A stretch of 64,000 nucleotides of DNA. Origin: Ruminiclostridium sp. GTDB taxonomy: Bacteria; Bacillota; Clostridia; Oscillospirales; Oscillospiraceae. The notes beneath the pieces were generated by a model that ran no database searches, had not been told where the DNA came from, and was given only the letters and a program-made list of their open reading frames with translations. Location of the stretch: positions 10,050 to 74,049 of the forward strand of contig JAFSFC010000009.1 of the NCBI GenBank assembly GCA_017435425.1, given 5' to 3'. How positions within the stretch are numbered: the stretch's first letter is position 1; every line of letters starts with the position of its first letter. Positions 12,866-56,705 of this stretch are shown here, piece after piece. The translations under genes and the position numbers were made by a program.

Positions 12866-13289
12866 AGAAGTATCATATAATCTGTCTTTACGGGAGAGGC
12901 GTTGGATGCTAAAATAGGCCCAACCCAATTGGAAGGTGGGTATGCCTGTTTCCTTCATCGGAAGGAGGAAGCGGGTGCTTCATTGGCTCACACCAAGCCG
13001 GCTGTCAGGGCGATTCGCTCCTCGTTCTGACGACGAACCAGTCTGTCTCCTGCCAGGGGTGTGGCACGGAGTAAACCGAGACAGACGCCATTTCCATATT
13101 CTCCTTTTTGTGCTGTTCCGGCTGACCTGCCCTCTCTTCGTCAGTGTAGTCTTTCCCGGGCCGTGAACAGAAAATGGCTGCTCTTGACCGCCCCCGGTCG
13201 AGGGCAGTTGTTTTTTGGAAAAAAGGGAAAAAGAAAAGAGCAGCTGAAACAGCGGCTCTGGAGACACGACCCACGACGAGAAGTCGTGT

Positions 13290-13420
13290 ATCCTCCGTCT
13301 GTTTGCCTGAGAGATTCGGCCCGTGGGCCTTGCACCTTCGGCACTCAATTCAATGAGATTCTCCAGAGATCCCTCCGTTTCCAGTTTCGGTCTGATCCTA
13401 AAAACATCATCGGGCCATAT
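13290..13420 (-). ncRNA. Glycine riboswitch (singlet), copy upstream of a small ORF and lysR
   Basis: Minus strand: atatggcccgatga...ctctggagaatctc..gccgaaggtgcaa..aatctctcaggcaaacagacggag. It is followed by an anti-aptamer (tccagag) and a U-rich terminator. Confidence 0.85.
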
Positions 13421-15165: not shown

Positions 15166-15259
15166 GATGATATCCTCCCGAAAAATGGAATAAAAAATGA
15201 GCTGCCGAAAGATCAGCAACTCCGAAGAATAACATACAGACACCGTTTGGAACGATGGT

Positions 15260-15396
15260 CTGCTCTGTCCTTTTGCCTGAGAGATTCGGTCAAGACTGAC
15301 CTTACACCTTCGGCACTCAACTCAATGAGATTCTCCAGAGGTCCCTCCGCCTTCAGTCTCCCGTTTGGGGATCCTTAAGGGTTCATCGGGCCATAT
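15260..15396 (-). ncRNA. Glycine riboswitch (singlet) upstream of the AGCS symporter
   Basis: Minus strand: atatggcccgatga...ctctggagaatctc..gccgaaggtgtaa..aatctctcaggcaaaaggacagag. Classic genomic context. Confidence 0.9.
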
Positions 15397-54601: not shown

Positions 54602-55369
54602 ATGACCGTCTTAGAAGCAAAACACATTGAAAAGCATTTTGGTTCCGTCCGGGTCCTGGAGGACATCAGCTTCTCCCTGGAAGAGGGCCAGGTCCTGGCC
54701 ATCATCGGCTCCTCCGGCAGCGGCAAGACCACCCTGCTGCGCTGCCTGAACTTCCTGGAGACCCCTGACAAGGGTACCATCACCGTAAAGGATGAGCTCC
54801 TGTTCGACGCTGCCGACCCCGCCACCCAGCGGGAGAGTGAGATCCGCCGCAAGCGCCTCCACTTCGGCCTGGTCTTCCAGGACTTCAACCTCTTCCCCCA
54901 GTACACCGCCCTGCAGAATGTCACCCTGGCCCGGGAACTCATGGCCAAGACGGAAAAGACCGGCGAGAGCCTGGAGGACATCCGGGCTGAGGGCATCGAG
55001 CTTTTGACCATGATGGGACTGAAGGACCGCATGAGCAACTACCCCCACCAGCTCTCCGGCGGCCAGAAGCAGCGTGTGGCCATTGCCCGCGCCCTGGCCA
55101 TGAAGCCCTCCATCCTCTGCTTTGACGAGCCCACCTCCGCCCTGGACCCCGAGCTCACCGGCGAGGTGCTGAAGGTCATCCGCAGCCTGGCCGACCAGGA
55201 CCGTACCATGATCATCGTCACCCACGAGATGGAGTTCGCCCGGGACGTGGCCGACAAGGTCATGTTCATGGACGGGGGCGTGGTGGTGGAGGAGGGCCCT
55301 CCCTCTGAAGTCTTCGGCAACCCCAAGCACCCCAGAACCCGCCAGTTCCTGGACAAGTTCAGTGGATAA
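54602..55369 (+). CDS. Polar amino acid ABC transporter ATP-binding protein
   Basis: GSSGSGKTT, LSGGQKQR, FDEPTSALDPE and VTHEM. Confidence 0.95.
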   Translation: MTVLEAKHIEKHFGSVRVLEDISFSLEEGQVLAIIGSSGSGKTTLLRCLNFLETPDKGTITVKDELLFDAADPATQRESEIRRKRLHFGLVFQDFNLFPQYTALQNVTLARELMAKTEKTGESLEDIRAEGIELLTMMGLKDRMSNYPHQLSGGQKQRVAIARALAMKPSILCFDEPTSALDPELTGEVLKVIRSLADQDRTMIIVTHEMEFARDVADKVMFMDGGVVVEEGPPSEVFGNPKHPRTRQFLDKFSG

Positions 55370-55408
55370 ACAACGAAAGCCCTCCGGCTCAACGGAGGGC
55401 TTTTTTAC

Positions 55409-55930
55409 ACTCAAGGGAAACGAGTGCTGGCGCACTGTTTCCCTTTGGGCCCTGATTTTACGGCGGCCTACGCCGCCTCAAGAGGCCTTGAGTTCGATCA
55501 ACAATGTGCATAAACAAAAAGAGTACTATCTTTCGATAGTACTCTTTGGTCCGAGTGTTGAGATGTCTCCGCGCTAAGAGCCGCCTTCGGCAGTTGCGCT
55601 CCGACACGCCCACTGCGGTGGGTGTCGAACGCAAGGGAAACGAGTGCTGGCGCACTGTTTCCCTTTGGGCCCTGATTTTACGGCGGCCTGCGCCGCCTGC
55701 AAGAGACCTTGAGTTCGCCAACGATATTTGAACAACGAAAAAGAGGAGTACCACCTAAGTAGTACTCCTCTGGTCCGAGTGTTGAGATTCGAACTCAAGG
55801 GAAACGAGTGCTGACGCACTGTTTCCCTTTGGGCCTGATTTTACGGCGGCCTACGCCGCCTGAAAGAGGCCTTGAGTTCGTCCAACGATGTGCGAAAACA
55901 AAAAGAGTACCATCTTTCGATAGTACTCTT
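55409..55930 (-). repeat. tRNA-linked tandem repeat array, three ~160-bp units
   Basis: Each unit has a terminator hairpin, an antisense tRNA fragment and two hairpins. Units 1 and 2 end in the tRNA 3' end (55771-55800, 30 nt identical; 55547-55564, 18 nt identical then interrupted); unit 3 is truncated. Confidence 0.9.
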
Positions 55931-56007
55931 TGGTCCGAGTGTTGAGATTCGAACTCAAGGCCTCTTGAACCCCATTCAAGCGCGATACCAAACTTCGCCA
56001 CACCCGG
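55931..56007 (-). tRNA. tRNA-Pro (anticodon GGG), CCA encoded
   Basis: CCGGGTG acceptor / GCGA-TCGC D stem / CTTGA-ATGGGGT-TCAAG anticodon arm / TTGAG-TTCGAAT-CTCAA T arm / CACTCGG-ACCA; 77 nt. Confidence 0.95.
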
Positions 56008-56117
56008 ATATTCACTTCGCTGTCAGACAGCTTAGTTATAATAGCACGGGTATTTGGTTTTTGCAAGTCTTTTGTTGGAAAATACTGCACAAAAAGATGG
56101 GGTGCTATTTGGTGGAT

Positions 56118-56705
56118 TTAGACCACTCCGGCCAGGATGACCTTCTCTACCACGATTTGAGACCAGGTCTCCAGGTAGGGGAACTCCCGCTGCAGCTCTT
56201 CCACAGAGGCCCAGCTGCCGGACATCTTCTCGGTTTCCCGGACGGTCACCTGGCCTTCCGCCTCCAGCAGGCAGACCAGGGCGGCATGGTAGTCACTGAC
56301 ACCACCGTTGTTCTCATTGAGGAAGCCCACAGCCCGCAGGGAAGTCACGGTCTCCACTGCCACCTCCTCGTCCAGCTCCCGCAGAAGACCGGCCTCCAGG
56401 GGATCCTCGGCGGTCTCCTCGGTGGGGTTGATGTGCCCCCCCACCCCCAGGGAGAGCTTGTCGTGAAGGCGGGCCTCGGTCTGCTTCTTCAGCCGCCGCA
56501 GGAGAAAGTATTTACCTCCCTGCCGGATGACCACATAGGGGATAATCTGCTTGACGGTGTCGTCATACTCTGCCTTTTCCCGCTCCAGGAAGAAGTGGTG
56601 TTCCAGGATGAACCGGCGGATGGTCTCCATGTTTTCTGTGGTGAAAGGCTCGGGGGGGAGGAGGGCCTCCAGTTCCTTTCGGTCTACCACCAGTACGTGT
56701 TCCAT
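56118..56705 (-). CDS. Predicted NUDIX-family phosphoesterase
   Basis: KQIIPYVVI, E.RLH.KLSLGVGGHINP and GLLRELDEEV. Confidence 0.85.
   Translation of the reverse strand: MEHVLVVDRKELEALLPPEPFTTENMETIRRFILEHHFFLEREKAEYDDTVKQIIPYVVIRQGGKYFLLRRLKKQTEARLHDKLSLGVGGHINPTEETAEDPLEAGLLRELDEEVAVETVTSLRAVGFLNENNGGVSDYHAALVCLLEAEGQVTVRETEKMSGSWASVEELQREFPYLETWSQIVVEKVILAGVV

Follow-up and report, generated by a model that had tools for sequence, protein, structure and literature searches.

In the 64,000-nucleotide window analysed here (contig JAFSFC010000009.1, positions 10,050 to 74,049, from an uncultured Ruminiclostridium sp. of the ruminant gut), a folded module of ~160 bases stands three times in tandem behind the tRNA-Pro(GGG) gene. 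Each copy, or unit, combines an intrinsic terminator that appears to be a copy of the tRNA gene's own, an inverted part of the tRNA (nucleotides ~39–58), two GC-rich hairpins and a direct repeat of the final 30 nt of the tRNA, CCA included. We regard the array, with about even confidence, as a co-transcribed structured 3′-trailer module of tRNA-Pro(GGG) that is similar to the RtT repeats of Escherichia coli, is kept by structural selection and varies in copy number through unequal recombination. On this view, selection on structure would keep the module in one clade of Oscillospiraceae. The original prediction, made from the letters of the window, had described a tRNA followed by three tandem structured units on the minus strand, and this was borne out by repeat and pattern searches.

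Architecture of the array

The tRNA-Pro(GGG) gene is the single tRNA gene that ARAGORN and Rfam call within the window. The gene, its promoter-like site and the elements of the three units are as follows.

56038..56066, minus strand: promoter-like site of the tRNA gene, TTGCAA, 17 nt, TG-TATTAT (sigma-70-like; consensus match)
55931..56007, minus strand: tRNA-Pro(GGG) gene with encoded CCA (ARAGORN; Rfam RF00005, 58.5 bits)
55930..55771, minus strand: unit 1
55895..55930, minus strand: unit 1 terminator, type 1, AAGAGTACTATC-GAAA-GATGGTACTCTT + TTTGTTTT (−16.0 kcal/mol)
55865..55880, minus strand: unit 1 antisense block CGAACTCAAGGCCTCT, reverse complement of the variable loop, T-stem 5′ strand and start of the T-loop (inverted repeat of 17 nt with 55950-55966, 100% complementarity)
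55845..55860, minus strand: unit 1 hairpin 1, GGCGGC-GTAG-GCCGCC (sequence reading, per-unit folding)
55799..55827, minus strand: unit 1 hairpin 2, GGGAAACAGTGC-GTCA-GCACT(C)GTTTCCC with bulged C (pattern search, folding)
55771..55800, minus strand: unit 1 direct copy of the tRNA 3′ 30 nt, CCTTGAGTTCGAATCTCAACACTCGGACCA (direct-repeat search)
55770..55547, minus strand: unit 2
55737..55770, minus strand: unit 2 terminator, type 2, GAGGAGTACTAC-TTAG-GTGGTACTCCTC + TTTTT (−21.0 kcal/mol)
55702..55717, minus strand: unit 2 antisense block CGAACTCAAGGTCTCT (pattern search)
55682..55697, minus strand: unit 2 hairpin 1, GGCGGC-GCAG-GCCGCC (sequence reading, folding)
55635..55663, minus strand: unit 2 hairpin 2 (pattern search)
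55625..55636, minus strand: unit 2 tRNA 3′ copy, first part, CCTTGCGTTCGA, with A-to-C in the T-stem
55565..55624, minus strand: unit 2 insert in the T-loop copy, 60 bp, foreign to the unit
55547..55564, minus strand: unit 2 tRNA 3′ copy, second part, ATCTCAACACTCGGACCA (direct-repeat search)
55546..~55407, minus strand: unit 3
55511..55546, minus strand: unit 3 terminator, type 1 (terminator scan, folding)
55478..55497, minus strand: unit 3 antisense block TCGAACTCAAGGCCTCTTGA (20 nt; perfect complement of tRNA 55949-55968)
55462..55477, minus strand: unit 3 hairpin 1 (sequence reading, folding)
55415..55443, minus strand: unit 3 hairpin 2 (pattern search)
55407..55416, minus strand: unit 3 truncated tRNA 3′ remnant, CCTTGAGTGT

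The order of elements is the same in each unit: a terminator hairpin of 12–13 bp with TTTTT, a spacer of ~20 nt, the antisense block, hairpin 1, a 17-nt linker, hairpin 2 and the tRNA 3′ copy. The antisense block, CGAACTCAAGGYCTCT(TGA), is the reverse complement of tRNA nucleotides ~39–58. The original prediction had it antisense to the variable loop and T-arm. The variable loop, the 5′ strand of the T-stem and the first 5 nt of the T-loop are indeed covered; the block does not extend over the whole T-arm, and it also includes the 3′ strand of the anticodon stem. Hairpins 1 and 2 have the general forms GGCGGC-GNAG-GCCGCC and GGGAAACAGTGC-GYCA-GCACT(C)GTTTCCC, the latter with a bulged C. At its 3′ end the unit repeats the final 30 nt of the tRNA, CCA included, in direct orientation; units 1 and 2 have this copy at full length. 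The end of unit 3, at CCCTTGAGTGT, is flush against the terminator of a convergent ATPase gene of an ATP-binding cassette (ABC) transporter, and the unit is thus truncated, as had been proposed. The insert of unit 2 lies within the T-loop copy (between TTCGA and ATCTC), also as proposed, and is 60 bp long; it is no simple palindrome.

Direct-repeat families and inverted repeats of 17–20 nt (94–100% complementary) tie the tRNA to every unit. Within the 64-kb window, hairpin 2 occurs three times, where 0.00 occurrences are expected by chance, and never outside the array. The antisense sequence CGAACTCAAGGYCTCT is found three times on the minus strand and its sense counterpart once, within the tRNA, with 0.04 expected. 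Terminator-like sites numbered 13 against an expectation of 1.2. Each unit opens with an intrinsic terminator, having a 12–13-bp stem followed by TTTTT, whose G-U pairs form on the minus strand only.

Structural conservation and predicted fold

The comparison set consisted of 12 distinct units from the window and its relatives; labels such as L048 denote the fetched loci or contigs that were compared with the window. Since MAFFT misaligned the variant hairpins, each unit was folded individually in place of column-wise covariation counts for hairpin 1 and for the GGCCU/AGGCC helix described below. The terminator, hairpin 1 and hairpin 2 folded in all 12 units, compensatory changes were observed in all three hairpins, and RNAalifold gave 7 predicted pairs with double changes. 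The terminator exists in at least three sequence versions connected by compensatory changes, and such changes also separate type 2 from type 1 in the window. Most units have GGCGGC/GCCGCC as hairpin 1, whereas L066 and L134 have CUGCGC/GCGCAG. This variant (CTGCGC-GAA-GCGCAG) keeps all six pairs, although both partners have changed in four of them. The middle of hairpin 2 exists in two unrelated sequences, and with either one the stem has 12 bp and a C bulges out of its 3′ strand; the second type, GGGAATCGGCGC..GCGCCCGATTCCC, occurs in relatives and has the same shape. Further compensated variants of hairpin 2 are present in L063 (C-G to U-A) and L049 (G-U).

Within the clade of the window, the first 100 nt of the best-matching units are 90–95% identical, and the neutral yardsticks are 68–80% for third codon positions of the neighbouring NUDIX gene and 63–85% for the spacer between the NUDIX gene and the promoter. 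Relative to L134, the most distant carrier, the identity of the units falls to 59–69%, which is about neutral (third codon positions 59–67%), with the architecture intact. Such a pattern is that of a structured nucleic acid and not of a decaying scar; a mobile element that depends on the fold for its movement would show it as well.

The stretch of unit 1 from the spacer to CCA has a predicted folding energy of −56.5 kcal/mol, compared with a mean of −31.4 kcal/mol for shuffled sequences (z = −7.3), and none of 200 shuffles was as stable. The predicted fold of unit 1 is a three-way junction, and the topology given by RNAalifold is identical. Its closing helix, GUUGG-CGAACUCAAG / CUUGAGUUCG-UCAAC, is predicted to consist of the antisense block and the T-arm copy. 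The predicted branches of the junction are a GGCCU/AGGCC helix bearing hairpin 1, and hairpin 2, and the tail ACUCGGACCA is predicted to be free before the next terminator.

Several known structures and gene types were considered for the units and rejected. The units lack a 5′ acceptor strand, and ARAGORN and Rfam called only the genuine tRNA, so they are not tRNA-like genes. Searches for known ribozyme, riboswitch and small RNA families in Rfam gave only chance-level matches at E-values up to 10. A hammerhead core, domain V of a group II intron (the AGC triad is missing and the length does not fit) and an integron attC core were rejected by eye. Open reading frames (ORFs) do cross the units, but the unit lengths differ by non-multiples of three and terminators lie inside. 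A switch by inversion of the tRNA with the inverted block was discarded upon reading the sequence, since the inverted product would not restore the T-arm.

Comparison with E. coli RtT and other systems

The tyrT-linked repeats of E. coli and their RtT/RttR RNA have been known for decades, without an accepted function or origin. Rfam lists RtT as an enterobacterial cis-regulatory element only. The original prediction had pointed to these repeats as a parallel, and the comparison on the tyrT/tyrV region of E. coli K-12 (NC_000913.3 1286300-1287900; L171) revealed the same antisense-plus-sense design. Four RtT units were located in L171 with Rfam RF00391, at 133–137 bits each.

411-542 of L171: E. 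coli RtT unit
589-720 of L171: E. coli RtT unit
767-898 of L171: E. coli RtT unit
1064-1195 of L171: E. coli RtT unit

The E. coli repeats have a spacing of 178 bp and carry a direct copy of the 3′ end of tRNA-Tyr (ATCCTTCCCCCACCACCA) and an inverted copy of its T-arm and acceptor, GGGGAAGGATGAGAAGCTTCGA, of which 19 of 22 positions are complementary to the tRNA. The inverted copy is followed by a sense fragment, AAGGTTCGA, ~70 nt of GC-rich hairpins and the direct 3′ copy. In the curated structure of RF00391, the antisense block and the tRNA-derived segment form a closing helix around inner hairpins and leave a free ccaCCACCA tail. The annotated small RNA RttR starts 8 nt past the CCA of tyrV and ends at the last A of the CCA of the first repeat. 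RtT has been described as a processing product of the tyrT transcript that may be linked to the stringent response (bioRxiv 10.1101/2024.07.17.603846; PMC3318445; both citing Bosl and Kersten 1991).

Like the RtT repeats, the units of the window are arranged in tandem directly 3′ of a tRNA gene on the same strand, and a unit ends in a direct tRNA 3′ copy with CCA (30 nt in units 1 and 2, 19 nt in E. coli). In both systems, an inverted copy of the T-arm region pairs with the direct copy and closes GC-rich hairpins, the CCA tail being free; for the window's units, this is the predicted fold. The T-arm copy is also interrupted in the T-loop in both: in E. coli as AAGGTTCGA / ~70 nt / ATCC..., and in unit 2 at the same place. 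The two systems differ in the tRNA and phylum (Pro(GGG) in Bacillota, Tyr in Enterobacteria) and in the extent of the antisense block, which runs from the 3′ strand of the anticodon stem to the T-loop in the window and over the T-arm plus acceptor in E. coli. Each unit of the window opens with its own intrinsic terminator, whereas the E. coli tyrT transcript is terminated in a Rho-dependent manner inside the repeats. A conserved ORF of the tpr type is absent from the window's units. The clostridial unit is an architectural analogue of RtT and not a member of that family. With it, the RtT plan is seen a second time, in an unrelated sequence of a distant phylum and with evidence of structural selection, which makes of a single case a pattern open to systematic search and comparison.

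A broader proposal, which we hold only tentatively and consider doubtful as it stands, is that RtT-type modules represent a general class of tRNA 3′-trailer RNAs, of convergent or ancient origin, in which inverted and direct fragments of the tRNA 3′ half close a hairpin domain that acts on the tRNA's own pathway. If this were true, the class would be characterized by a free ...NCCA tail and would be represented by Tyr in Enterobacteria and Pro(GGG) in Oscillospiraceae. The RNA might then be, for example, a mimic of or competitor for factors of 3′-end processing, CCA handling or sensing of uncharged tRNA, and RtT would be the first member of a family instead of an E. coli curiosity.

The 3′ external transcribed spacers (3′ETS) of tRNA transcripts can act as RNAs, as in the 3′ETS-leuZ sponge of E. 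coli. As with these, a terminator-ended tRNA 3′ trailer could persist as a stable RNA once the tRNA has been cut off. Unlike the window's units, 3′ETS trailers are single, short and not made of tRNA fragments, and unlike 3′ETS-leuZ, the units have no known base-pairing target except the tRNA itself. Another class for comparison is that of folded single-strand recombination sites, such as integron attC and the attP1/attP2 hairpin of CTX phage. Here the likeness is that the inverted half-sites, ~80 nt apart, could anneal and mimic a duplex target, that the shape is kept while the sequence varies, and that there are extrahelical bases and tandem arrays at one attachment site. The GTTRRRY / RYYYAAC core of attC is absent, GTTCGAA does not fit it, and there is no integron or Xer-type context. 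Moreover, the terminators of hairpin plus U-tract argue for a role at the RNA level on the tRNA strand, unlike that of folded recombination sites.

Assembly check and occurrence in relatives

The original prediction had raised the possibilities that the array is an assembly artefact or occurs only here, and both were contradicted by the data. Many short-read contigs do end in or beside the array, as would be expected if a repeat had been mis-joined in this metagenome-assembled contig. Logan unitigs from four independent DNA runs, however, tiled all unit-specific junctions with no mismatches, at a depth close to that of the single-copy flanking genes. The identical 748-bp intergenic region was also present in an independent 189-kb scaffold, and the order of unit types in the window (1, 2, 1) recurs in L050, a metagenome-assembled genome (MAG) of another species. 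The probability that the array is an artefact of assembly is therefore very close to nil. For annotation in general, such arrays are a hazard, as they resemble att scars of integrases and break short-read assemblies at tRNA genes.

The hairpin-1 pattern was used to scan one genome per GTDB species. The five real hits all lay directly behind tRNA-Pro(GGG) and belonged to MAGs of ruminant or human-gut Oscillospiraceae (labelled Ruminiclostridium sp. at NCBI). Identical flanking proteins, NUDIX homologues and two metagenome loci led to further loci (L017, L063, L066, L133 and L134-136). In the metagenome scan, the pattern CGAACNCAAGG..CCTTNNGTTCGA was not specific enough. Of the 81 listed loci, 79 had nothing to do with the module, and the usable ones were L063 and L066. 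In total, the module was found behind tRNA-Pro(GGG) in at least six related Oscillospiraceae genomes, in one to at least three copies. The variation in copy number among strains that had been suggested was thus observed, including a two-unit allele in L015, a locus from another sample with an identical ABC ATPase protein. This allele looks like a deletion in homologous register whose two ends lie in hairpin 2 of unit 2 and hairpin 2 of unit 3; it could also stem from a collapse during assembly.

The module occupies two kinds of loci. At locus A, the order is NUDIX, tRNA, units and ABC genes; at locus B, it is a SatP-like gene, tRNA, unit, and tRNA-Leu or MATE. Both loci occur in one MAG (L048, L049) with similar promoters and leaders, and related loci in general keep the tRNA-Pro(GGG) promoter and leader. 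Loci of SatP-like (Gpr1/Fun34/YaaH) homologues were fetched for further cases of locus B, and none of them contained the tRNA. Carriers of the unit have a NUDIX protein at least 78% identical to that of the window. Relatives whose NUDIX proteins are 75%, 72%, 70% (Evtepia gabavorous) and 68% identical have the tRNA in place and no unit. All genomes of the clade that are readable behind tRNA-Pro(GGG) have the module, and the carrier clade yielded no empty site.

L134 (3290-4090) contains another complete tRNA-Pro(GGG) gene, 700 nt downstream of the first and with a similar promoter of its own; the DNA between the two has 40% GC. The terminator of this second tRNA has the same stem as the terminator that follows the unit, with an inverted loop (TCTTTCGA vs TCGAAAGG).

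Transcription and proposed mechanism

The tRNA promoter is the sole promoter-like site in 55200..56300. No promoter-like site was found inside the units, and unit RNA would therefore be made by read-through only. In two metatranscriptomes, contigs with a depth of 3–6 run from a tRNA 3′ copy through terminator 2, the spacer and the antisense block to hairpin 1 of the next unit, and in the same samples the NUDIX and ABC genes have a depth of 0.

Under the proposal of a co-transcribed trailer module, transcription would start at the strong tRNA promoter, which by consensus match would be the only one. Polymerase that passes a terminator would then transcribe the next unit, as the metatranscriptome contigs weakly suggest. 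Each unit is predicted to fold into the three-way junction, closed by the antisense block and the T-arm copy in the window's units, which would leave ...ACUCGGACCA single-stranded before the next terminator. By analogy with E. coli RttR, 3′ trimming may then yield a CCA-ended RNA of ~125–135 nt. Unequal homologous recombination between the repeated blocks would alter the copy number, as suggested by the two-unit allele of L015 and by arrays of one, two, three or more units. The original prediction had offered an array that gives CCA-ended tRNA-like or antisense small RNAs as one of two readings. The compensated hairpins, the stability relative to shuffled sequences, the unit-spanning contigs and the RtT design make this the better fit of the two; the CCA-ended product itself is proposed by analogy. 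A role of the RNA linked to tRNA processing or to the response to amino-acid starvation, again by analogy with RtT, would be speculative.

A number of observations weigh against the proposed trailer module. The RF00391 model gave no match at E-values up to 10 over 55300-56150 or on unit 1 alone, and the likeness to RtT is accordingly architectural only. The pairing of the antisense block with the T-arm copy of its own unit, as originally predicted, holds for the window's units and fails in the most diverged relatives. The closing helix is thus not universal: it contains two mismatches in L134 and is absent from the minimum-free-energy folds of L066 and L134, and one variable pair of the helix shows all four combinations (T/A, G/C, T/C and G/A). 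Four loci with a single unit have a last tRNA 3′ copy that breaks off short of CCA (L017, L048 and L051 after CAACAC, L049 after CTCGGA), which indicates that the CCA end is not essential everywhere. The high identity within the clade could also result from gene conversion or recent spread. The RNA evidence consists of low-depth Logan contigs from metatranscriptomes, in which carry-over of DNA is possible, and the efficient-looking intrinsic terminator at the start of each unit implies that the downstream units may be rare in RNA.

Integration at the tRNA gene and other explanations

The tRNA-Pro(GGG) gene is an integration hot spot. In IMG/VR, 25 contigs (L020-L044) contain its exact 30-mer, and most of them are attP-like, with identity from the anticodon loop or variable region to CCA over 37–48 nt. 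Behind the attP block come a phage-borne terminator hairpin (AAAGTTCCGAAAA...) and direct repeats, for example CTATTGCATAC, that probably serve as arm-type sites of an integrase. In contigs of the Evtepia gabavorous type (L143-L146, 3289-5588), a phage-type terminator follows the orthologous tRNA and genes for an amidase and a holin lie within 2 kb; a prophage, or what is left of one, stands at this att site. Strains with identical NUDIX proteins diverge from the first base past CCA (L147 vs L149, and L151 vs L152). Taken together, these contigs, prophage genes and strain differences make the att-site idea of the original prediction reasonable. Tandem duplications of att sites at tRNA or transfer-messenger RNA (tmRNA) genes have been described for the ssrA islands of Dehalococcoides (PMC3146451) and for the accretion of integrative mobilizable and integrative conjugative elements (PMC5704250). 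As in the accretion of cis-mobilizable elements (CIMEs) or tandem islands, direct repeats of the 3′ terminus of a tRNA-type gene border the segments of the window, each segment brings a tRNA 3′ end and a terminator, and the same tRNA is a phage att site. Unlike CIMEs, the segments are ~130 bp long and gene-free, have no integrase nearby and are found on no mobile replicon searched. They also differ in holding an inverted tRNA fragment, structurally constrained hairpins and native-like terminators.

Could the units, then, be miniature non-autonomous elements, each a bare attP of a 30-nt core plus arms, inserted by a trans-acting tyrosine integrase specific for the T-arm and accreted in tandem? 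This is the main rival of the trailer module, and we consider it unlikely, though worth keeping in view. The original prediction of a ~130-bp non-autonomous element at tRNA-Pro holds as far as the hot spot itself is concerned, and the direct tRNA 3′ copies do bound each unit, which has its own terminator as phage attP sites do. Strains of one species differ right after CCA, and it is there that prophage lysis genes are found in Evtepia gabavorous. In L134, the first tRNA-Pro is occupied and a second copy 700 nt away has no unit, and the distal terminator resembles that of the unit-free copy. Units are also present at two loci, with the types of terminator, hairpin 1 and hairpin 2 in mosaic combinations. 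On the other side, the genome scan found the unit only behind tRNA-Pro(GGG), and it is absent from IMG/VR, 72,556 plasmids and 50,697 phage records. A phage origin of the unit was rejected because the attP sites for tRNA-Pro(GGG) have other flanks, none with hairpin 1 or 2. The absence of an integrase in the neighbourhood, as noted in the original prediction, was confirmed: none lies within ~5 kb of the array, the rest of the genome not having been searched for one acting in trans. The loop TCGAAAG of terminator types 1, 3 and 4 is shared with the native terminator of the unit-free L147, and type 2 has its stem in common with type 1; with this loop in a native terminator, the units look home-grown rather than imported. 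Segmental duplication accounts for the two loci, since loci A and B have a common promoter and leader, and the presence of the unit in all readable clade genomes is unlike that of patchy mobile DNA. In addition, ~130 bp between att copies would be very short for the excision of a circle, compensatory change in hairpins is unexpected for protein-binding arm sites, and the two-unit allele of L015 fits a deletion in homologous register and not an att-to-att excision. Should the units be integrative after all, they would be the smallest att-bounded elements described.

Two further explanations remain, and both are improbable. At the DNA level, the tRNA 3′ copies might be decoy att landing pads that spare the essential tRNA from integrating elements and small insertions, with hairpins and terminators acting as insulation. 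This would account for the 3′ copy of L048, which is cut after CAACAC and continues into DNA of 41.7% GC compared with 56% upstream, for the breaks of L017 and L051 at the same position with different DNA beyond, and for the 60-bp insertion in the T-loop copy of unit 2 next to an intact real tRNA. These examples are three in number, the phage attP blocks reach the anticodon loop (45–48 nt), a part that the units lack, and integration into a tRNA gene normally leaves that gene restored, so that little protection is needed; the antisense block and the conserved hairpin shapes are left unexplained. A still slighter chance is given to the view that the units have no function and are scars, in neutral decay, left by past integration and excision or by duplication at the att hot spot. 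The near-neutral identity to L134 and the truncated terminal copies in several genomes are in its favour. It is opposed by the conservation within the clade, where the units are far better conserved than neutral sites, by the pairing of all three hairpins, which compensatory changes maintain even in L134, and by the retention of the module at two loci and in all clade genomes readable behind the tRNA.

The insert of unit 2

The core of the insert (35 nt, 55567..55601) consists of GAGCGCAAC..hairpin..CTCTTAGCGCGGAG. Its depth was ~1900 in a DNA run in which single-copy sequence had a depth of ~9, and 285 in a metatranscriptome. The hairpin flanking the core varies among the copies with compensation and has a constant CTGCGG loop. 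A relative of the insert was found in the fmt-rsmB spacer of Subdoligranulum variabile (L172 1501-1557), where the second hairpin is compensated. No further copy was found in the window or in the fetched loci. We read the insert as one member of a family of short structured elements, interspersed in Oscillospiraceae and present at very high copy number in gut metagenomes, and as having landed in the pseudo T-loop; the family may be an element similar to repetitive extragenic palindromes (REP) or miniature inverted-repeat transposable elements, or a small structured RNA.

The insert was also considered as a 5′ fragment of tmRNA on account of its TTCGAC and GCCGA-AGGCG motifs and its high depth in DNA and RNA. 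This was rejected: the insert matched no Rfam family, 55545-55645 gave no tmRNA match at E-values up to 10, ARAGORN was negative, and the Subdoligranulum relative has no tRNA or tmRNA context.

Surroundings of the array

The genes and the terminator next to the tRNA and array are as follows.

56705..56118, minus strand: NUDIX gene, on one side of the tRNA
54602..55369, plus strand: ATPase gene of the convergent amino-acid ABC transporter operon, on the other side of the tRNA
55376..55403, no strand assigned: bidirectional terminator hairpin of the convergent ABC ATPase gene; distal boundary of the array, outside the unit

The neighbours on the NUDIX side are genes for a GTPase, L19, an Na+/H+ antiporter and the NUDIX protein; those on the ABC side are the ABC transporter genes and an RCC1-repeat gene. 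The terminator hairpin of the ABC gene abuts different DNA in other strains. In L013, L014, L016, L018 and L019, which have an identical ABC ATPase protein, the DNA past the terminator is quite different and no array is in reach, which indicates that the junction on the array side is a point of rearrangement between strains.

REP-like hairpins of the form GGGCCGATG-NNNN-CATCGGCCCCTACAG were observed between the unit and the ABC terminator in L017, L046, L051 and L013. In L046, hairpin 2 and the tRNA 3′ copy have given way to one such hairpin. The L-type hairpin 2 also starts with GGGCCGATG, as the REP-like hairpin elements do. Past the CAACAC cut of L048 (3655-4717), a 290-aa ORF with no match in Pfam or PADLOC is present, and this segment is probably a small foreign island joined at the pseudo-copy.

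Elsewhere in the window, two glycine riboswitch aptamers (Rfam RF00504) are present on the minus strand, at 13285-13376 (58.7 bits) and 15255-15348 (57.7 bits). They are ~2 kb apart and are single aptamers at separate sites, not one tandem pair.

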